Positions 10,965-19,507 of a DNA stretch of 64,000 nt are shown one piece after another; position 1 is the stretch's first letter, and every line of letters begins with the position of its first letter. Location of the stretch: assembly GCA_025060695.1 (NCBI GenBank), contig JANXBH010000001.1, forward strand, positions 90,730 through 154,729. Reading direction: 5' to 3'. The DNA comes from a candidate division WOR-3 bacterium (GTDB taxonomy: Bacteria; Hydrothermota; Hydrothermia; LBFQ01; DSFT01). The notes beneath the pieces were generated by a model. That model was not told where the DNA came from and made no database searches. It saw only the letters and a program-made list of their open reading frames with translations. The position numbers were made by a program, and so were the translations under genes.

Positions 10965-11669
10965 TTGTATGCTTTAGTTTCAGATTTGGCAACAGGAATA
11001 GGAGCAATTCCTTTTTTTTTCATTAAAGACATCAAAAAGAAGATTTTAGGCTTTCTTGAAGCACTTGCAGGTGGTTTAATGATGGGTGCAAGTTTTAATT
11101 TAATATTTGAAGGGATAAATCTAAATATCTTGTTATTAAATATAGGAATGATTTTAGGAATACTTCTTGTTGTAGCTTCAAATAATTTTTTAAATGGTAA
11201 AGAGCTTGCACTTGGAAATATAAGAGGTATTTCAGCTAAAAGAGCTATATTGTTTTTATTTATAATGACCGCACATAGTTTCGCTGAAGGTATTGCAATT
11301 GGTGTTTCATTCGGTGGAAGGGAAAATCTTGGTATATTGACCTCTGTAGCTATAGCAATTCACAATATACCAGAGGGTCTTGCAATATCACTATACTTAA
11401 TTTCGCAAGGTGCAAGTCCAATCGCCTGCCTGTTTTGGAGTATATTCTCAAGTCTTCCTCAGCCAATTATGGCTGTCCCTTCTTATATCCTTGTTGAAAT
11501 CTTTAAACCAATTTTACCATTTGGTTTTGGCTTTGCAGCAGGAGCTATGATATATCTTGTATTATGGGATATTATACCAAGTTCCCTAAAATCAGTTTCA
11601 CAAGAATTTAACTCTATAACTATAATTTTAGGAACCTTATTAATGATAACTTTTTATAAATTACTCTAA
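10965..11669 (+). CDS. zupT: ZIP family zinc/metal transporter (ZupT-like)
   Basis: Signature AIAIHNIPEGLAISL (HNxPEG), the HSFAEGIAIG motif, and 8 predicted TM helices. Confidence 0.75.
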   Translation: MYALVSDLATGIGAIPFFFIKDIKKKILGFLEALAGGLMMGASFNLIFEGINLNILLLNIGMILGILLVVASNNFLNGKELALGNIRGISAKRAILFLFIMTAHSFAEGIAIGVSFGGRENLGILTSVAIAIHNIPEGLAISLYLISQGASPIACLFWSIFSSLPQPIMAVPSYILVEIFKPILPFGFGFAAGAMIYLVLWDIIPSSLKSVSQEFNSITIILGTLLMITFYKLL

Positions 11670-12056
11670 TTTCTTTACTGGAACTTTTATTTTTTTCTCG
11701 CCTGACTTTTTAAATTTTAATACCAGCTCAATAGTGTCATTTTCTCTTAAGTCTTCTTTTAAGTTTATAAGCATTACATGAAGACCCCCTGGCTCTAAGC
11801 TTAGTTTATCCTTTATCACTAAATAGTCTATTTTTTTCATCTCCATCATATCACCCTTTTTTATTGTCTCATGTAATTCGGTTATATTCGCACAATTGCA
11901 GTATGCTTCATACAAAGTATCCTCCATACCTTGATTATTCTTTATTTTCATATATACCGCACTTGAACCATCCTTAGGAGCTATTCTCGCATATGGATTC
12001 AATATCTCTATATCCTCACCTACCTTATTACATCCAACTATAAAAAGTAATATCAA
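11661..12056 (-). CDS. PCu(A)C-family periplasmic copper chaperone, lipoprotein
   Basis: Lipobox LFIVGC at the N-terminus. Cu(I)-binding pattern H..M...M..H.M (ELHETIKKGDMMEMKK ... GGLHVMLINLK) typical of DUF461/PCuAC. Confidence 0.6.
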   Translation of the reverse strand: MILLFIVGCNKVGEDIEILNPYARIAPKDGSSAVYMKIKNNQGMEDTLYEAYCNCANITELHETIKKGDMMEMKKIDYLVIKDKLSLEPGGLHVMLINLKEDLRENDTIELVLKFKKSGEKKIKVPVKKLE

Positions 12057-12088: not shown

Positions 12089-12105
12089 AGGGGGAACGGC
12101 CCCCT
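12089..12105 (-). terminator. GC-rich hairpin (GGGGG-AACGG-CCCCC) followed on the minus strand by a T-rich tract
   Basis: It immediately abuts the stop codon (12104-12106) of the TonB-dependent receptor gene. It is the only GC-only stem in an AT-rich intergenic region. Confidence 0.5.
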
Positions 12106-13921
12106 ATATAGAGATACTAATTGAGAAATTTCTGAAAGGTTCAAATGTTTTAAATGGATTGGTCGGTTCTATGTATTTTTCATTAAATAGATTATTTATA
12201 GAAAAGTTTAAACTTATTCTTCTAATGTTGTAATCTATCCCAAGAGAAAATATGGAAAATAGTTTTTTGCTTTTCTCATCAAAGAATGCTCTATGGTATA
12301 GCGTAATGAATTTATAACTTAGTCTCGTCCTTAACTGAGGTTTTGTATAAAATTCAATCTCAACCGAAGGTTTGGAGTATTCAAGTGTAGTACTAAGAAA
12401 AAAGTTATTAAACGGAATGAAATTCATATTAAGCAGCGAGTTGAAAATGTATATATCTTTATTTTCCCACGTATAGGCTGGATATCCTTCAATAGTATCA
12501 TTAGCAAACTTTAGTGAAATGTAGTTTTTTATATAACTTATAGACGGGTTAACATTAAGCATTATGAAATTTAAAGAATGCTTATAGTCTACATGAAAAC
12601 TAAGTAGAAGCTCCTCTTTTAAACTTGGATTTGGAATTTCGTATCTATTTGCTGTCTTGTGAATACCTTCAAATGTTAACTGCTGGAGTGATGGGTACTG
12701 AATTGACTGAGAAAGAGAAAAGTTAAAATCACTAAATTTCGTTCCAATTAAAAAGCTATAACCAATTTTCAGTTTCTCATCAAAGCTTGAGTAGCTTGGT
12801 ATTATTGAAAATGCATAATTAAGGTTCTTAAACTTGTTAGAATATAGAGTTGAAAGTATTATTCTGTTATAGTTATATTTATCTTCACCTTTTGAAAGAA
12901 AATCACTATAGTTTAAATTTAAGTAGAAGTTATTTGAATTATAAATAGTTTGGATTGTTCTTAGATTTAGCTGAGTTATTAGTTCATCTCCATCGTATTC
13001 TCTTTGGTCCGAGTTTTGAAAATCTAAAATAAAATTATTGTAGCTTAGTCTTGGATTTAGATATATATTTTTTGCTCTTGACTGACCATGAGCACCATGC
13101 ATAATTTTACTTTCTTCTAAGCTTGGCACGCCATAGTTTATAAAACTAAAATAGTTTCCAATCATAATTTTCTTATATTTTGCAGAAAGTATTGAGTATA
13201 TTGAACTATCGGAAGTGTTTTCTATTTCTGGATTTTTAAAGTCTCCACTTATTGAACCCTTAATACCAACTTTGTATGAGAAGTTTTTAAAGTTTCTATT
13301 ATCCTTAAAGAGCACAGAAAATCTGTCATTAGATGATAAATAGGAAAATTTACCCACATATCTATTCTCATTTGTTATATCAAATATCCTTAAGTCCAAG
13401 CCACCTGCTACAGAATTTATACCAAATATAGCGTTTGTAGATGTATTGCCTATATATATTTTATCCGCAAGTTCAAAGTCCATTACTATAGGATGGTCAA
13501 GGTAGTCGCTTTGGTCATGCAATATCGCACCATCTACAGTAATATTGTATTTATCCCTATTGAAACCGGAGATTATAGGCTTGTTCACTACACTACCATA
13601 CATTGTATTTTCAAGGTCAAAGTCCAATTTCCTTACCTCATTTAATCTTGTATATTTAGAAACGACTTCAACAGGTTTTAGGCTAATTCCTTCCACTTCA
13701 AGATATATTTCACTTGGAACATTTTCTTTAAATTTTAACATTTTATAGCCTATTCTATATATTATGATACTATCCTTATATTTCACATTAGCACAACCAC
13801 TATGGTCTGTAAAAGTAATACTTATTGGGCTATAAATCTTTACCGCTTCAAGCGGCTGTTTTGTCTCTTTATCATAAACACAAATTTTTAAGTTTTCTAA
13901 ATTTATAATTAAAGCTATCAT
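12104..13921 (-). CDS. TonB-dependent outer-membrane receptor (small, about 605 aa)
   Basis: Plug-domain pattern ...NITVDGAILHDQSDY... and IYIGNTSTNAIFGINSVAGGLDLRIFD, then a long beta-rich region rich in Y/N/S/F. Confidence 0.65.
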   Translation of the reverse strand: MIALIINLENLKICVYDKETKQPLEAVKIYSPISITFTDHSGCANVKYKDSIIIYRIGYKMLKFKENVPSEIYLEVEGISLKPVEVVSKYTRLNEVRKLDFDLENTMYGSVVNKPIISGFNRDKYNITVDGAILHDQSDYLDHPIVMDFELADKIYIGNTSTNAIFGINSVAGGLDLRIFDITNENRYVGKFSYLSSNDRFSVLFKDNRNFKNFSYKVGIKGSISGDFKNPEIENTSDSSIYSILSAKYKKIMIGNYFSFINYGVPSLEESKIMHGAHGQSRAKNIYLNPRLSYNNFILDFQNSDQREYDGDELITQLNLRTIQTIYNSNNFYLNLNYSDFLSKGEDKYNYNRIILSTLYSNKFKNLNYAFSIIPSYSSFDEKLKIGYSFLIGTKFSDFNFSLSQSIQYPSLQQLTFEGIHKTANRYEIPNPSLKEELLLSFHVDYKHSLNFIMLNVNPSISYIKNYISLKFANDTIEGYPAYTWENKDIYIFNSLLNMNFIPFNNFFLSTTLEYSKPSVEIEFYTKPQLRTRLSYKFITLYHRAFFDEKSKKLFSIFSLGIDYNIRRISLNFSINNLFNEKYIEPTNPFKTFEPFRNFSISISI

Positions 13922-13977: not shown

Positions 13978-14238
13978 TTAAAAATTAGGAGGAGAGCGAA
14001 TATTTGGAAAAATAAGACTATAAGTTTCGTGCTTTTTAGTTTTCATTGATATTGAAACAATGTATAGAACTCTCGGTTTTTCTATTTTTAATGAAAAACC
14101 TTCGATTTTAGGAGGATTGTTTTGATAGTGTAAGATAAGACATTCTTCTAATATTGAATGATGAATATGATTGTGAAAGCTTGAAATTACAATTGCATTT
14201 AATATAAATATTAATGTGAGAAATGAGAAAATCTTCAA
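13978..14238 (-). CDS. small secreted His-rich protein (possible metal-binding)
   Basis: 86 aa with an N-terminal hydrophobic signal-like segment then FHNHIHHS. It has its own upstream TTTTATAATTTTAAAG element. It sits in the copper/metal gene block. Confidence 0.35.
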   Translation of the reverse strand: MKIFSFLTLIFILNAIVISSFHNHIHHSILEECLILHYQNNPPKIEGFSLKIEKPRVLYIVSISMKTKKHETYSLIFPNIRSPPNF

Positions 14239-15050
14239 GGTTTTATAATTTTAAAGTCCGCATCTATCAAAAATACTCCTTTTTTTACAATTTTTTCACC
14301 ATTCTTTATACCTTCAATTAAATAACCATCTTTTACATCAGTAATAATCTTTACTTCTTTTGCTTTAAATGAGCCATCTTCAAAAACATATACTATATCA
14401 CTATTTCCTGTTCTAATTACTGAACTTTTCGGAACAATCTTTCCCCTTATTTCCTTCACTATCTTACCTACTTCATAATTATTCTCAAAGAAAGTATTAT
14501 CATTTTTAAGAATAACGATAATTTCAAAGTAGTTTGCACTATTGGAAGAAGGTAAAATCTCTACTACTCTACCCTTAGTATTTCTAATTTCAACTATATC
14601 TCCTTTTTGAACATATAAAAAATCGCTTTTTCTAACGCTACCTATAAACTGAACAATAGAATTATTTACAATTTCCATAACTACAGAACCAGCCTCAAAT
14701 TTTTCACCTTCTGTTATATCAATTTTCAAAACTCTTCCACTAATAGGACTTCTAAAAATTATACTATCCGAAAATATATCTTCAGGACTTATTTGTAATA
14801 ACTTAATCCTCTCAAGAATAAAACTATCTTTAGTAATATCGAACTCCGATTTTATTCTTAAAATTTCAGGAGAATAAAAACTAAAAATCTTCTCTCCTCT
14901 ATTTATATATTCTCCTTCGTTTTGAATATAGAGATTTAAAACGTATCCAGAAAATCTTGGAACAATTTTTGTAATTGCATTTTTTGGAAATTTTACTACA
15001 CCTTCTATGATTATTTCCTTATAACCAACTGTATCTTTAACTAAAAAAAA
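14235..15050 (-). CDS. RND membrane fusion protein (CusB/HlyD family), C-terminal two-thirds; frame lacks a start codon
   Basis: By my hand translation the frame is open from 15050 down to 14235, about 272 codons. It encodes MFP-like beta-barrel and membrane-proximal segments (RSPISGRVLKIDITEGEKFEAGSVVMEI; IVYVFEDGSFKAKEVKI...GEKIVKKGVFLIDAD). There is no ATG/GTG/TTG before the internal TTG at 14729. It joins the upstream ORF by a 1-nt shift in a T8 run. Confidence 0.6.
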   Translation of the reverse strand, partial: FFLVKDTVGYKEIIIEGVVKFPKNAITKIVPRFSGYVLNLYIQNEGEYINRGEKIFSFYSPEILRIKSEFDITKDSFILERIKLLQISPEDIFSDSIIFRSPISGRVLKIDITEGEKFEAGSVVMEIVNNSIVQFIGSVRKSDFLYVQKGDIVEIRNTKGRVVEILPSSNSANYFEIIVILKNDNTFFENNYEVGKIVKEIRGKIVPKSSVIRTGNSDIVYVFEDGSFKAKEVKIITDVKDGYLIEGIKNGEKIVKKGVFLIDADFKIIKP

Positions 15051-15445
15051 TCAATAAGTTTATTATCTATTTGAGAATGTGTATGCTTAACTTCCCCCTT
15101 AAATGGTATATTTATTAGCTTTTCAATTTTGTTTCCATCTAACTCTAAAATAATAAACCACTCACCACTCATAGAAACAAAAACTTTTCCTTCGTAATTT
15201 TTATTTAGTTCAAATACTTCTGTCATGGCAGGCATGCCTGGCATTTCCGGCATATACAAATACGCCTTAAATGACCTTGGTTTTGGTTCTATTATAAACT
15301 TTACCTTATTTTCTCTTTCCTTTAGCATTCCATCAGTAGTTAAGATTTTTACTTTATATCCTTTATCTACTATTTCAAGAACTTCTTTATAATTTTGACC
15401 ACAGGATATAAGAAAAAGTAATATAAAAATTTTCCTCATATTCAA
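15041..15445 (-). CDS. lipoprotein N-terminal segment of the same CusB-like adaptor; Met-rich putative Cu(I) site
   Basis: Lipobox LISCGQ and a Met-rich motif YMPEMPGMPAMTEV. The ORF stops (TAG 15041-15043) right after GAU UUU UUU, inside the T8 homopolymer 15043-15050. Confidence 0.55.
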   Translation of the reverse strand: MNMRKIFILLFLISCGQNYKEVLEIVDKGYKVKILTTDGMLKERENKVKFIIEPKPRSFKAYLYMPEMPGMPAMTEVFELNKNYEGKVFVSMSGEWFIILELDGNKIEKLINIPFKGEVKHTHSQIDNKLIDFF

Positions 15446-15449
15446 AATT

Positions 15450-16436
15450 TTAAAACATAAACTTTAACTTATAGTAGCTTAGGATTGCATTATATTTCAA
15501 CCTGTTTATTTCTCTTTCCATATTCAATATTTCGTTTAAATTATAGTAGTATTCTACTAAAGATATATCACCTAAAAGCTTTGAAATATTTAAAGTCGTC
15601 ATAAGTTCATCTCTTCGGCTTTTATATAACTCATATTGACTAACTGATAGTTTATATTCAGATATAGTTCTTTCAATTTCAAGCTTAATATATTCTATTG
15701 AAGAACTATAGTAATTTCTATATGCATCTTTCAATTTTACTCTTGTCTTTATTTCACCTAATGGAAATGTATTAATAGTAAATCCTATCATAAATCCATA
15801 TGTATTATCTTTTCTTATTAAAACCATAGGTTTTACATTAGGAACAAGCTTTATATAGCTTAATTTTAAAGAATTTTCAATTGTCTTAAGTTCATAGCTT
15901 AACATATTATAATCTACGGTCTCTTCCAACTTATAGTCTTTTAATTTTGGAATACTTTCAATATCTTCAATGCTATCTATCTTGGCATAGTAGTTTAGTG
16001 TAATCATTAAATTATTATATTTTGCCTTAAGAAAATCCAAGTTTATATTCAATTCTCTTATTTTTGCATTTATCTCTAATATTTTTGAAAATTCCGTAGT
16101 TTTATCATATTTATAAGCACTTAGTATTAGCTTCCTTATTTTTTCATAGTTTTCTAAAATTTTATATAGAATTTCCAATTCTTTTTTTAATTCAATAGCT
16201 TGTAAATAAGTCTCTATTGCTTCAAGTATGAATTCATTCCTTTCTTTTAAATTTTTATATTTCATCGCAACTATTTCATCTTTAATTATAAAAGACTCAT
16301 ATATCATATGGGGCGATATTTCAGTTCCTATACTTATATTTCCACTTTCAAACATTGCATTGTATTCTACCATAAGCTGTGGATTTAAAGCACTGTAAAT
16401 TTGATATTCGTAATACTTTACTTTTTTATGCTCCAT
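15450..16436 (-). CDS. outer-membrane efflux factor-like protein (TolC/OMF family?), short
   Basis: 328 aa, heavily coiled-coil (alternating heptads), ending with aromatic YKLKFMF. Its position next to MFP and RND genes suggests an OMF. No signal peptide at the annotated ATG, so the N-terminus is uncertain. Confidence 0.4.
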   Translation of the reverse strand: MEHKKVKYYEYQIYSALNPQLMVEYNAMFESGNISIGTEISPHMIYESFIIKDEIVAMKYKNLKERNEFILEAIETYLQAIELKKELEILYKILENYEKIRKLILSAYKYDKTTEFSKILEINAKIRELNINLDFLKAKYNNLMITLNYYAKIDSIEDIESIPKLKDYKLEETVDYNMLSYELKTIENSLKLSYIKLVPNVKPMVLIRKDNTYGFMIGFTINTFPLGEIKTRVKLKDAYRNYYSSSIEYIKLEIERTISEYKLSVSQYELYKSRRDELMTTLNISKLLGDISLVEYYYNLNEILNMEREINRLKYNAILSYYKLKFMF

Positions 16437-16513: not shown

Positions 16514-19507
16514 TTGCTTGAAAAAATTGTAAATTTTTCTCTGAAAAATAAAACTACAATTTCACTTATCGTTATACTTTTAACTATTGTTGGAATATAT
16601 TCCATATTTAAAGTTAATATAGATGCAATACCAGATATTTCAGAAAATCAAGTAATTATTACCGCAAGGTATGAAGGACAGGACCCCATTACTATTGAGG
16701 AGCAAGTTAGCTATAAGTTAGTATCAAGACTACTATCAATACCTAAAATTAGAACTATTAGAGCAATTTCAATGAATAATATTGCTTTTGTATACATAAT
16801 TTTTAAAGATGGTGTAAATATATATTGGGCAAGGTCTAGAGTTTTAGAGTATATTGCAGGATTAGATATTCCAAAAGAAGTAAATATACAAATTGGCCCT
16901 CCCTCATCTTCTATATCTTGGATAGTTCAATATGTACTAATATCAGATAAACATACTATTGATGAGTTAACTGCATTTAACGAGTTTATATTAAAACCAT
17001 ATCTACAGGCAACAGAAGGTGTATCAGAAATAGCTACAATAGGTGGTTTTATAAAGGAATATCAGATAGACGTTGACCCATATAAATTAAAATCTTATAA
17101 TTTAAGTTTTGAAGAAGTTTTAAAGGCTATTGAAAATGCCAACTTATCAACAGGTGGAAGGTTTATAGAAATAGCCGAAAGATATTATAACATAAGGGGA
17201 TACGGATATATTAGAACATTGGAAGATATTGAGAATATTTCTATAAAAGGCATAAAAATTAAGGATATAGGTATTGTTCAAATAGGTCCTTCAATAAGAG
17301 AAGGAGCTTTGGACTATAATGCAAAAGGTGAATCGGTAGGTGGTATTATTATTTCAACAATAGGAGAAAATGCGTATAAAGTAATTAGAAATGTAAAAGA
17401 AAAAATAAAGAAGATAAATTTGCCTGAAGGTATGAAAATAGAAATCGTTTACGATAGAAGTTATTTAATTGAGGAAAGCATTAAAACATTGATTAGCGCA
17501 ATATTAAAAGAAAGTCTTATAATCGCAATATTAGTTTATATTTTTTTAGTTTCAATAAAATCTTCTATTTCAATAATTATTATACTTCCTCTTTCGGTAA
17601 TTTTATCTATAATTTTTGTAAAAATTTTTAACATTACTTTAAACATAATGAGTCTTGGTGGTTTTATACTATCGCTTGGAGTTTTGATTGATATGGCGGT
17701 TGTTCTTGTAGAAAGCAGTCATAAGTATATTGAGCAAGGATATTCCAAAATAGAAGCAATAGAAAAATCAGTTAAGGAACTTTCAAGAAGTATTTTCTTT
17801 TCGCTATTAATCATTACAATATCATTTTTACCAGTTTTCTTTCTTACTGGTGAGGAAGGAAAACTATTTAAGCCATTAGCTATTACCAAAACCTTTTCCA
17901 TGTTAATAGCTTCAATACTTTCTATTTCTTTCATAATCATTTTAATATATTTCTTCCTCCCAAATAAAACCAAACCTGAAATGGAAAATCCTATAAATAG
18001 AATAATTTTGAAAACTTACGAGTTCACATTCAAAATTGTATATAAATATCCATTAGCTTTTATAGTGTTTTTTATTTTGTTTTCCGTTTTCGGTATTTTT
18101 ATTTATAAAACCATAAAAAGCGAATTCTTACCACCATTTAATGAAGGCTCAATTTTATATATGCCATCTACAACCTCAGGTATTTCTATACAAAAAGGTA
18201 TTGAAGTACTTAGATATATGGATTCTATTATTATAAGTAATGAAAATGTAAGAGCGGTTTTTGGAAAAATTTCAAGGGCAAACACAGCTACTGACCCTGC
18301 ACCACCTAGCATGATTGAAACTAATATAGAGCTAAAAGACCCAAAGAAAATATACGAAGTTATAAATGAATTAAGCCATAAACTAAATATCCCTGGATTT
18401 ATAAACACATTTAGTATGCCAATTAGAACAAGGATAGATATGTTAAAAACAGGCATTAGAACTCCACTTGGAATAAAAGTATATGGAAATGATCCTTATA
18501 TTACCGAAAGTTTAGCAATAGAGATAGAAAAATTATTAAGGAGTTTAAGAGAGACAAAATATGCCTATGCAGAAAGACTTTCAAATTCATACTACATTAT
18601 AATTAGTCCAAGAAGAGAAAGAATTTCCCAATACAATATAAGTATAAAGGAGATTATGGATATTATAAATTTTTACATTGGTGGAAATACTATTACTTAC
18701 AAGATTGAAAATAGATTTAGCTATCCAATTAGAGCAAGAATTCTAAGAGACTATAGAGAAATTGAATATATTAAGAGGATACCTATTTTTACAACTTCAG
18801 GTTTTGTAAGCTTAGAAGATATATGCGATATTCAAATTAAAAGAGGTTTTGAAATGATTAGAAATGAAAATGGATTTATTACAAGTTATATTTATCTTGA
18901 TAGTCATGACGACTATTTAAAATATATTCAAAAAGTAAATTCTATAATAAATTCATTCATAAAATTCCCCTCTGGATATTTTTATGAGGTTTCAGGTCAA
19001 TACGAAGACTTAAAGAGAGTTCAAAGCACACTTGTTTTTATTATTCCAATGACCATATTCATTATATTTATTTTGCTATATATGAACTTTAAGAGTTTAG
19101 TAAAGAGTATTTTAGTATTGATATTACTTATATTTCCACTTTCGGGAGCCTTTATTACTATAAAGTTATTAAACTACAATTTATCAATTGCGGTATGGAT
19201 TGGAATTGTTGCACTTTTAGGTATAAGTACGGAAATTATTGTAGTAAAAATTGCGTTTTTAGATTTAGGTTTTGAAAAGTTCAATAACAAATACGAGGCT
19301 ATACACTGGGCAGTGATAACAAGATTAAGACCAATTACAATTACTACACTAACCGCATTCTTTTCACTAATTCCTATAATGTTTGAATTTACACTTGGTG
19401 CAGATATTATAAAAAGAATAGTTGCACCCATGATAGGAGGTATATTCTTTACATTCATTTTAAGTTTATATATCTTGCCAAGTTTTTATGTAATGTTTAA
19501 AAAATAG
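16514..19507 (+). CDS. heavy-metal efflux RND transporter (CusA/CzcA family)
   Basis: N-terminus MLEKIVNFSLKNK...IDAIPDISENQVIITARYEGQDP is the hallmark HME-RND start. 997 aa with 12 TM and large periplasmic loops. TTG start. Confidence 0.8.
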   Translation: MLEKIVNFSLKNKTTISLIVILLTIVGIYSIFKVNIDAIPDISENQVIITARYEGQDPITIEEQVSYKLVSRLLSIPKIRTIRAISMNNIAFVYIIFKDGVNIYWARSRVLEYIAGLDIPKEVNIQIGPPSSSISWIVQYVLISDKHTIDELTAFNEFILKPYLQATEGVSEIATIGGFIKEYQIDVDPYKLKSYNLSFEEVLKAIENANLSTGGRFIEIAERYYNIRGYGYIRTLEDIENISIKGIKIKDIGIVQIGPSIREGALDYNAKGESVGGIIISTIGENAYKVIRNVKEKIKKINLPEGMKIEIVYDRSYLIEESIKTLISAILKESLIIAILVYIFLVSIKSSISIIIILPLSVILSIIFVKIFNITLNIMSLGGFILSLGVLIDMAVVLVESSHKYIEQGYSKIEAIEKSVKELSRSIFFSLLIITISFLPVFFLTGEEGKLFKPLAITKTFSMLIASILSISFIIILIYFFLPNKTKPEMENPINRIILKTYEFTFKIVYKYPLAFIVFFILFSVFGIFIYKTIKSEFLPPFNEGSILYMPSTTSGISIQKGIEVLRYMDSIIISNENVRAVFGKISRANTATDPAPPSMIETNIELKDPKKIYEVINELSHKLNIPGFINTFSMPIRTRIDMLKTGIRTPLGIKVYGNDPYITESLAIEIEKLLRSLRETKYAYAERLSNSYYIIISPRRERISQYNISIKEIMDIINFYIGGNTITYKIENRFSYPIRARILRDYREIEYIKRIPIFTTSGFVSLEDICDIQIKRGFEMIRNENGFITSYIYLDSHDDYLKYIQKVNSIINSFIKFPSGYFYEVSGQYEDLKRVQSTLVFIIPMTIFIIFILLYMNFKSLVKSILVLILLIFPLSGAFITIKLLNYNLSIAVWIGIVALLGISTEIIVVKIAFLDLGFEKFNNKYEAIHWAVITRLRPITITTLTAFFSLIPIMFEFTLGADIIKRIVAPMIGGIFFTFILSLYILPSFYVMFKK

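Follow-up and report, generated by a model that had tools for sequence, protein, structure and literature searches.

A shared one-base frame break at a poly-T run between a YtkA-like lipoprotein and a CusB-like efflux adaptor in candidate division WOR-3 bacteria, and its possible rescue by slippage

In E. coli, a single copper-export gene, copA, makes both a putative copper chaperone, CopA(Z), and the pump itself by means of -1 frameshifting (PMC5009743). Two products are likewise obtained from one chromosomal locus by slippage on A/T runs in the case of dnaX (tau and gamma) and of the Shigella mxiE/spa genes, and the route may differ between orthologues, the ribosome shifting frame in certain species and the polymerase slipping in others (PMC5009743; PMC3711429). 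In the endosymbionts Blochmannia and Buchnera, conserved homopolymer frameshifts are rescued by transcriptional slippage, at least in the account given by PMC3017870, which cites Tamas 2008 and Wernegreen 2010. Here, we describe a gene with some likeness to these systems in a stretch of 64,000 nucleotides (nt) from a candidate division WOR-3 bacterium (GenBank assembly GCA_025060695.1, contig JANXBH010000001.1, positions 90,730 to 154,729), which is called the window below and to whose numbering all coordinates refer. In this window, a gene for a CusB-like periplasmic adaptor of the RND efflux type, lying on the minus strand, loses its frame by one base where eight T's follow one another (T8), which divides it into a short YtkA-like lipoprotein and a long downstream half in the -1 frame. 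The break is real and common to diverged lineages; it coincides with a domain boundary, and selection acts on both halves. On balance, we regard it as probable that the break is old, has long been maintained, and is rescued by slippage on the U run, which would give the short copper-binding lipoprotein together with a minor amount of full-length adaptor; from the pattern described below, we infer that the fusion is made, the route by which it is made, and a role of its own for the short product.

The closest conceptual parallel would be E. coli copA, in that one copper-efflux gene gives a short metal-binding N-terminal protein and a long transport component, with the frame change at a domain boundary. 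In copA, however, it is the zero frame that gives the long product and the frameshift that gives the short one, which is reversed here; copA is described as using efficient -1 ribosomal frameshifting, whereas our locus has a bare U run for which no stimulator was found; and the proteins are unrelated, a P-type ATPase with its metal-binding domain in one case and an RND adaptor with a YtkA-like domain in the other. With dnaX and mxiE/spa, the locus has in common that it is chromosomal, and it shares the predicted making of two products by A/T-run slippage, but those systems are experimentally proven, whereas ours is known from sequence alone, the whole of the present analysis being computation on consensus DNA. 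The dnaX site, moreover, is A AAA AAG with Shine–Dalgarno (SD)-like and hairpin stimulators, and the runs in the polymerase-slippage cases are typically of at least nine bases. The likeness to the Buchnera and Blochmannia frameshifts, as far as these are described in PMC3017870, comprises an AT-rich genome, a single indel in a coding poly(A/T) tract, conservation of the frameshift between diverged lineages without decay, and independent events or reversions at the same tract. In contrast to them, our locus belongs to a WOR-3 bacterium known from hot-spring or hydrothermal samples and not to a reduced endosymbiont, the tract has 7–9 bases as against usually 9–12, slippage is predicted from the DNA, long runs are rare in the window, and the break falls at a domain boundary, so that the truncated product is plausibly functional itself. 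Selection-maintained homopolymer frameshifts and recoding are therefore known already, and what is new is the protein family and the phylum; our literature search found no paper that combines CusB, frameshift and slippage.

An earlier note, made from the letters of the window, had described a frame change inside a T8 run, with UAG directly behind U UUU UUU and the -1 frame continuing into the adaptor, and the sequence confirms this reading on the minus strand. Read 5' to 3', positions 15055–15041 are ATT GAT TTT TTT TAG, so that the T8 run (15043–15050, minus strand; A8 on the plus strand) consists of U UUU UUU plus the U of UAG, and the zero-frame stop (15041–15043, minus strand) stands right behind two Phe codons. 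The short zero-frame open reading frame (ORF; 15041–15439, minus strand) has 132 amino acids (aa) from its likely ATG at 15439, as in the public annotation, and ends in ...KLIDFF-TAG; the note had correctly called it a lipoprotein ORF but had given it 134 aa, the length obtained from the alternative TTG at 15445. The lipobox and the Met-rich motif that it had pointed out are both present. The former, L-I-S-C at residues 10–13 (15401–15412, minus strand), lies behind a short hydrophobic signal and was recognised by inspection against the lipobox consensus [LVI][ASTVI][GAS]C, and the latter, YMPEMPGMPAM at residues 62–72 (15224–15256, minus strand), is the putative Cu(I) site of the YtkA-like domain, kept as YLYMPxMPGMPxM throughout the family alignment.

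On the 5' side, a TGA of the -1 frame (15051–15053, minus strand) abuts T8 and shuts the downstream frame above the run. From the run onwards, this frame reads TTT TTT TTA GTT AAA and continues to a TGA at 14237–14235, giving 271 sense codons plus the stop (14235–15050, minus strand), which encode the barrel-sandwich, beta-barrel and membrane-proximal domains of a CusB-like RND periplasmic adaptor; the joined protein has a length of 401 aa. Given that stops flank it in each frame, T8 is the sole stretch open in both frames, and it is therefore the obligatory site for any frame correction. As the earlier note had stated, the -1 frame has no start codon of its own, none being found in its first 107 codons and the earliest canonical one being a TTG at codon 108 (position 14729). 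Neither a signal peptide nor a lipobox was found in the downstream half, and the LISC lipobox with its signal is the single export signal in either half of the gene. The G+C content of the genome is 29%, and the T run is built from the two Phe codons plus neighbouring T's.

The comparison of orthologous loci that had been proposed as a check recovered the identical T8 and TAG in at least seven independent assemblies belonging to three diverged lineages, which we call the window clade: the window itself, GCA_026416795.1, and the Logan assemblies of SRR15826900, SRR15826899, SRR28200759, SRR28200752 and SRR7039829. All loci of this clade (the window, L001/L003, L002, L004, L005, L006 and L007) read GATTTTTTTTAG, and the three lineages differ at about 8–11% of sites, with a synonymous divergence (dS) of 0.27–0.41. 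The 132-aa protein is public as a “FixH family protein” of WOR-3 metagenome-assembled genomes (MAGs), and GCA_026416795.1 and one or more other WOR-3 MAGs at NCBI annotate this short protein and the truncated adaptor apart. Homopolymers of eight or more bases number only six in the window, compared with about 20 expected from base composition by our own estimate, which suggests that long runs are generally avoided and that the retained T8 stands out. The other five are in frame within intact long ORFs, and the longest of them, a T9 at 11012–11020 on the plus strand, lies in frame (IPFFFIK) in an intact ZIP-family transporter gene and is an internal control for the correct assembly of long T runs here. 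A scan of the window for further homopolymer-split genes found only ordinary overlapping gene pairs. A metagenome-wide scan with the 19-mer GATTTTTTTTAGTTAAAGA was discarded, since the pattern was too AT-rich and unspecific: it returned 68 loci, none of them encoding the protein.

When the two halves are joined, the sequence aligns end to end, with a gapless junction, to 400-aa single-ORF proteins of WOR-3 MAGs at 60–61% identity, so that the join foreseen in the earlier note is no product of chance, although the joined protein has 401 aa instead of about 406. About 18 fused YtkA-adaptor proteins were found, and in the family at large a fusion within one ORF is the common state. In one in-frame relative, L008, the junction is AAT TTT TTT TAT GTA AAA GAT (NFFYVKD), and the reading of the window with nine U's (U9), DFFLVKDT, aligns without any gap to the NFFYVKDT of the in-frame homologues. 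An in-frame protein of the window clade itself is absent among 5.8 billion proteins, the nearest full-length matches being 61% identical.

A search with the 132-aa product brought up further short proteins, all of them ending at the same ...NFF site, and most T-run lineages proved to be out of frame there, in both directions, with the gene otherwise intact. L101 has the configuration of the window, AAT TTT TTT TAA TAA (T8), needs a -1 correction and has an intact downstream ORF of 265 codons; L099, L100 and L018 (a Ca. Hydrothermia MAG) have AAT TTT TTT ATG TAA (T7), also need -1 and keep 264 intact codons; and L096, with AAT TCT TTT TTT TGT AAA, needs +1 and likewise keeps 264 intact codons. 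The T7 of L099 and L018 is shared at a dS of 0.37. L097 and L098 carry T9 and need +1, but they (L097:980-2131 and L098:780-1931) also have a second, compensating frameshift at an A6 stretch, some 72 codons past the T run, and have lost 16 aa of the lipoyl-like domain; two independent samples contain this copy, which is probably a true pseudogene, and theirs is the only lineage with further decay. Among the carriers of a T run, only the closely related L008 (T8) and L017 (T9) read in frame, intact and without correction, as do the members of the L009–L016 clade, which have no long run at all (AAC ATT TTT AAT or CAA ACT TTT GAC). These distant-lineage states are reproduced across several samples in SPAdes-type assemblies. 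A neighbor-joining tree places the window clade as sister to all others, with the placement of L101 unresolved (bootstrap 14.5%), and the breaks have therefore either arisen several times independently or are an old state from which reversions have occurred. As a side observation, only L099 and L018 have an AAGGAG (codons AAG GAG) 11 nt 5' of their T7, at a spacing like that of the SD-like stimulator of dnaX, where in-frame L008 has AAAGAG and the window clade has nothing similar; it may be due to chance. A homologous gene in L027:3001-4107 (Ca. Caldipriscus CON-C-r02) is spread over frames 1, 2, 3 and 1, which makes it either a heavily degraded copy or the product of an error-rich assembly, and it was left out of the analysis.

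The selection acting on the two halves was compared by means of the ratio of nonsynonymous to synonymous substitution rates (dN/dS). Between the three lineages of the window clade, dN/dS is 0.07–0.14 in the upstream half and 0.14–0.17 in the downstream half, and it is 0.11–0.15 in downstream codons 1–107, that is, before any canonical start in the window, while wrong-frame controls give 0.8–1.7. In the in-frame relatives L009 and L014, the same ratio is 0.11 for the N-terminal part and 0.17 for the C-terminal part, and in the broken distant lineages the downstream half gives 0.12–0.20. Judged by these ratios, the constraint on the downstream half shows no detectable relaxation in comparison with the in-frame relatives. 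Variable sites of the downstream frame are distributed over the three codon positions as 26/16/71 (chi-square about 45, calculated by hand), no indel has occurred across 816 nt of the downstream part in the three lineages, and in each of the six full-length split loci the downstream frame runs through 271 codons without a stop. RND adaptors work in the periplasm, and the downstream half, which has no export signal, would therefore be useful only when joined to the upstream half. Without a start codon or an export signal, and yet under normal purifying selection, the adaptor half must, in our view, be made as a fusion.

The upstream half matches the Pfam family PF13115 (YtkA-like) over residues 27–98, with 29.8 bits against a cut-off of 25.9, and the downstream half matches PF16576 (HlyD_D23, the CusB/HlyD barrel-sandwich) with 62.5 bits against a cut-off of 30. 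The NCBIfam cut-offs for CusB, CzcB and generic RND adaptors were missed by far (NF007303 for CusB, 28.9 vs. 390; TIGR00999, 79.1 vs. 319.3; TIGR01730, 59.6 vs. 94.9). With the family profile, the best solved relative in the PDB is E. coli CusB (E = 1e-23), and the N-terminal motif region matches PDB 9ll2, “Copper resistance protein” (E = 1e-14). The AlphaFold2 model of the joined protein has a mean predicted local distance difference test (pLDDT) score of 84, and its top Foldseek match is the CusB chain 3ne5_C (E = 4e-17, template modelling score 0.62). In this model, a beta-sandwich at residues 18–111 (pLDDT about 85–90) is followed by a disordered linker at 115–126, and the adaptor body opens with a strand at 130–133 (IDFF), which puts the T run just past the linker. 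According to the model, then, the run sits exactly at the domain boundary, and the 132-aa product is predicted to be a complete domain plus its tail, laid out as beta-sandwich and Met motif, with ...KHTHS... in the tail. Copper binding by the YtkA-like domain is putative, and it is suggested by the Met-rich motif, the 9ll2 match and the context of copper genes.

With E. coli CusB (PDB 3ne5, 3h94), its best match in structure and profile, the protein shares a neighbouring CusA/CzcA-family pump and OEP-like protein and a Met-rich metal-binding sequence N-terminal to the adaptor body. In contrast to CusB, to which it is only about 18% identical, its alpha-helical hairpin is short in the model (helices 191–214 only), and its N-terminal metal site is a folded YtkA-like beta-sandwich in a lipoprotein. 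The earlier description of a CusB-type adaptor with an N-terminal Met cluster was thus right as to the CusB-like fold and profile, but the Met residues belong to the folded PF13115 domain and not to a disordered Met triad as in E. coli CusB. The short product in turn resembles B. subtilis YtkA/CtaK, a copper-related lipoprotein with a His-rich tail (PMC9145763), in its PF13115 domain, lipoprotein signal, conserved Met and His residues and His-containing C-terminal tail; CtaK, however, is the product of a free-standing gene serving the assembly of the CuA centre of cytochrome oxidase, whereas in our family it occurs, as a rule, joined to an efflux adaptor, where its role is predicted.

We propose that standard decoding ends at UAG and would give the 132-aa lipoprotein, similar to a free-standing periplasmic copper protein of the YtkA/CtaK type, and that the fusion would be made by a correction inside the U8 run. 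By a first route, RNA polymerase would add one U (U8 to U9); by a second one, alternatively or additionally, the ribosome, with UAG in its A site, would slip by -1 on U UUU UUU. Either of these RNA-level routes would lead to the same protein, ...LIDFF-LVKDT.... In E. coli, slippage of RNA polymerase occurs on runs of seven or more T's, with a bias to poly(T) (PMC6260861). The T8 run lies within this range, one U more within it restores continuous homology, and the gene is retained without decay except in L097/L098. For the ribosomal route, the run holds a slippery heptamer of the X XXY YYZ type in the zero-frame phase (GA-U UUU UUU-UAG), on which both tRNA-Phe re-pair perfectly in the -1 frame, and the stop behind it could slow the A site and so favour a slip. 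Sequence alone cannot decide between the two routes, and we lean somewhat towards transcriptional slippage because no frameshift stimulator was found. RNA-polymerase slippage yields insertions as well as deletions. The breaks in the opposite direction at the same run fit polymerase slippage, or a simple tolerance of indels, better than a dedicated -1 signal, and U_UUU_UUU is of no use to lineages requiring a +1 correction. Of the programmed -1 frameshift with two products suggested by the earlier note, recoding into two products is the best-supported option, whereas a dedicated ribosomal signal is not borne out, as neither a 3' structure nor a 5' SD-like stimulator was found in the window and there are relatives that need +1.

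Several points weigh against an old break rescued by slippage and are brought together here. Downstream hairpins are weak, from -3 to -9 kcal/mol (z-scores from -0.4 to -2.5), and similar in the in-frame relatives, with nothing consistent among the five segments around the site and the downstream 60 nt that were folded in nine loci; as candidates for a 3' stimulator there were just weak AU-rich hairpins of -5 to -7 kcal/mol (z-scores from -0.4 to -2.0); no SD-like element was found about 10–14 nt upstream in the window, L005, L007 or L101; and an Rfam search gave no match. As a -1 site in E. coli, U_UUU_UUU is comparatively poor, far less shift-prone than A_AAA_AAG (PMC5009743), and T8 is near the lower limit for slippage of bacterial RNA polymerase (PMC6260861), so that yields may be low. 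Synonymous suppression is modest: around the junction, synonymous change is the lowest in the gene, with 0 of 20 codons (10 on each side) changed against 4.5 expected, but this has nominal significance only (P = 0.006 before multiple testing). A simulation with the observed transition-rich substitutions keeps the frame open in 17% of random placements, and because of this we rely on dN/dS and the codon-position bias and not on the open frame. The low dN/dS between lineages would also be expected if each lineage had acquired its break recently and independently, and L097/L098 show that a break at the run can be the first step of gene loss. A long-range stem in a 121-nt fold (z-score -2.5) was also considered and rejected, since by inspection the substitutions in L005 and L007 do not support its pairing, and a scan for terminators was negative.

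The main rival, which we nevertheless find unlikely, is a phase variation at the DNA level, in which slipped-strand mispairing during replication would reversibly switch the adaptor on and off and selection would act in the on periods. It would account for the different run states among related lineages (T7, T8, T9 and C+T8), with both frame errors and two in-frame states, and the product is a cell-envelope protein, a typical phase-variable class, in a poly-A/T tract of at least seven bases, which counts as a candidate repeat (PMC3711429). Yet the window clade is always found in the out-of-frame T8 state, in at least six samples and three lineages at a dS of about 0.3–0.4, no in-frame protein of it is in the database, and the T7 of L099 and L018 has likewise stayed common to both. 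Tract length is constant in at least seven window-clade assemblies and takes the values T7, T8 and T9 among lineages at a dS of about 0.4–0.5, as read from consensus assemblies. Classical contingency tracts vary between very close strains, and a T8 is short for high-frequency switching.

Still less probable is an inactivation at a mutational hot spot, by which the adaptor would be a young pseudogene, broken recently and independently in each lineage, with the short lipoprotein alone functional. Homopolymers are indeed hot spots of indels, L097/L098 have progressed to a clear pseudogene, and the short product resembles natural free-standing homologues. This explanation, however, requires at least six or seven parallel and very recent events, while a further lesion is seen in one lineage only and a single closely related pair among the T-run lineages is in frame; the downstream dN/dS equals that of intact relatives, despite differences at about 10% of sites, the three lineages have no indel in the 816 nt, and the intact neighbouring CusA-type pump would lose its adaptor. 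The inactivating frameshift that the earlier note had listed among its options is accordingly unlikely, as purifying selection downstream is as strong as in the in-frame relatives.

A true split into two genes, with the C-terminal part translated alone from a non-canonical start, is very improbable. It could find support in the NCBI annotation, where a 257-aa protein starts at an ATA as “MEGVVKF”, with an AAGGAA a few bases upstream of that codon. Against it, the first 107 codons contain no conserved ATG, GTG or TTG (none in the window, a TTG at codon 85 in L005, an ATG at codon 55 in L007), the start called by gene finders changes from lineage to lineage, with products of 164, 187, 217 or 257 aa, and the separate product would be without the beta-strands with which the adaptor opens in the model and, having neither signal peptide nor lipobox, could not, from established adaptor biology, reach the periplasm. 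The database entries for the downstream half are annotation artefacts of the frame break. The entry concerned, MCX7947034.1 (L001:4001-4774), begins with “MEGVVKF” where the DNA reads ATA GAA GGT, a non-canonical start chosen by the pipeline. Finally, a sequencing or assembly error hiding a true T9 and an ordinary single ORF, also among the earlier options, is rejected as having next to no chance of being correct: homopolymers are error-prone on some platforms and the source is a MAG, but the same T8 comes from independent pipelines (NCBI MAGs and Logan assemblies of five runs) and diverged lineages, the five other long runs of the window break no genes, and related lineages reproduce their own run states in several samples.

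Coming back to the rescue of an old break by U-run slippage, a further step would be to see the T run as a selected recoding switch that sets the ratio of a free YtkA-type chaperone (the major product, ending at UAG) to a chaperone-adaptor fusion (the minor product, by slippage) docking on the CusA-type pump, and that has been maintained or re-created in several WOR-3 lineages. We advance this only tentatively and consider it rather doubtful. The output of such a switch might depend on temperature or growth rate, as U-run slippage does, and, if true, it would be the RND-system counterpart of copA/CopA(Z). In favour of the main reading, free-standing YtkA-like homologues of 125–141 aa exist in this small family (18 cluster representatives in 1.84 billion proteins). 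In one WOR-3 MAG (ZZQ_201803_bins_59, JBDRWW010000005.1; L020:2971-4642), a free-standing gene for a 129-aa YtkA-like lipoprotein ending in ...ENEKHSH is immediately followed by a full-length gene for a fused YtkA-adaptor with a lipobox of its own, and the C-terminus of a P-type ATPase is found just before the 129-aa gene; in that lineage, therefore, the short and long forms are encoded separately.

If confirmed, the rescue would add a case of recoding that is chromosomal and non-mobile, from a phylum hardly studied so far, and it would be the first in an RND efflux adaptor, it would mean that ancient frameshifts kept by selection are not limited to degenerate endosymbiont genomes, and it would provide a second, independent copper-export gene encoding both a chaperone and a transport component. 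In practical terms, pipelines now call two genes, a “FixH family protein” and an adaptor that is truncated at the N-terminus and given an invented start, which misrepresents the efflux system in these genomes.

The genes around the adaptor are consistent with copper handling. Upstream of it lies a gene for an OEP-like outer-membrane efflux protein (15450–16436, minus strand; 328 aa) with a weak match to PF02321 (33.8 bits vs. 22), and divergent from these is an intact gene for a heavy-metal RND pump of the CusA/CzcA family (16514–19507, plus strand; 997 aa; TIGR00914, 744.8 vs. 701.45 bits; PF00873, E = 6e-169), which in the relatives comes directly after the adaptor gene. Downstream and in the same orientation as the adaptor is a gene for a periplasmic copper chaperone of the PCu(A)C type (11661–12056, minus strand; PF04314, 90.2 bits), and the gene for the ZIP-family transporter is also nearby in the window. 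The OEP-like product has 328 aa in the window and 344 aa in the L005, L006 and L007 lineages (L005:1076-2110); at both lengths it is short for the TolC type, and the Pfam match covers one OEP repeat.

Two further ORFs accompany the adaptor on the minus strand. A Pfam search gave no match for either of them, even at E = 10 in the case of the longer one. The shorter, of 86 aa (13978–14238), overlaps the adaptor stop by 4 nt, has a hydrophobic N-terminus and an HNHIHH motif, is also called, with 85–86 aa, in the related loci L001, L005 and L007, and may encode a small metal-related membrane protein. The longer, of 605 aa (12104–13921), has the adaptor on one side and the PCu(A)C gene on the other; it is conserved at the related loci, and its product, judged by eye from the sequence, looks like an outer-membrane beta-barrel.

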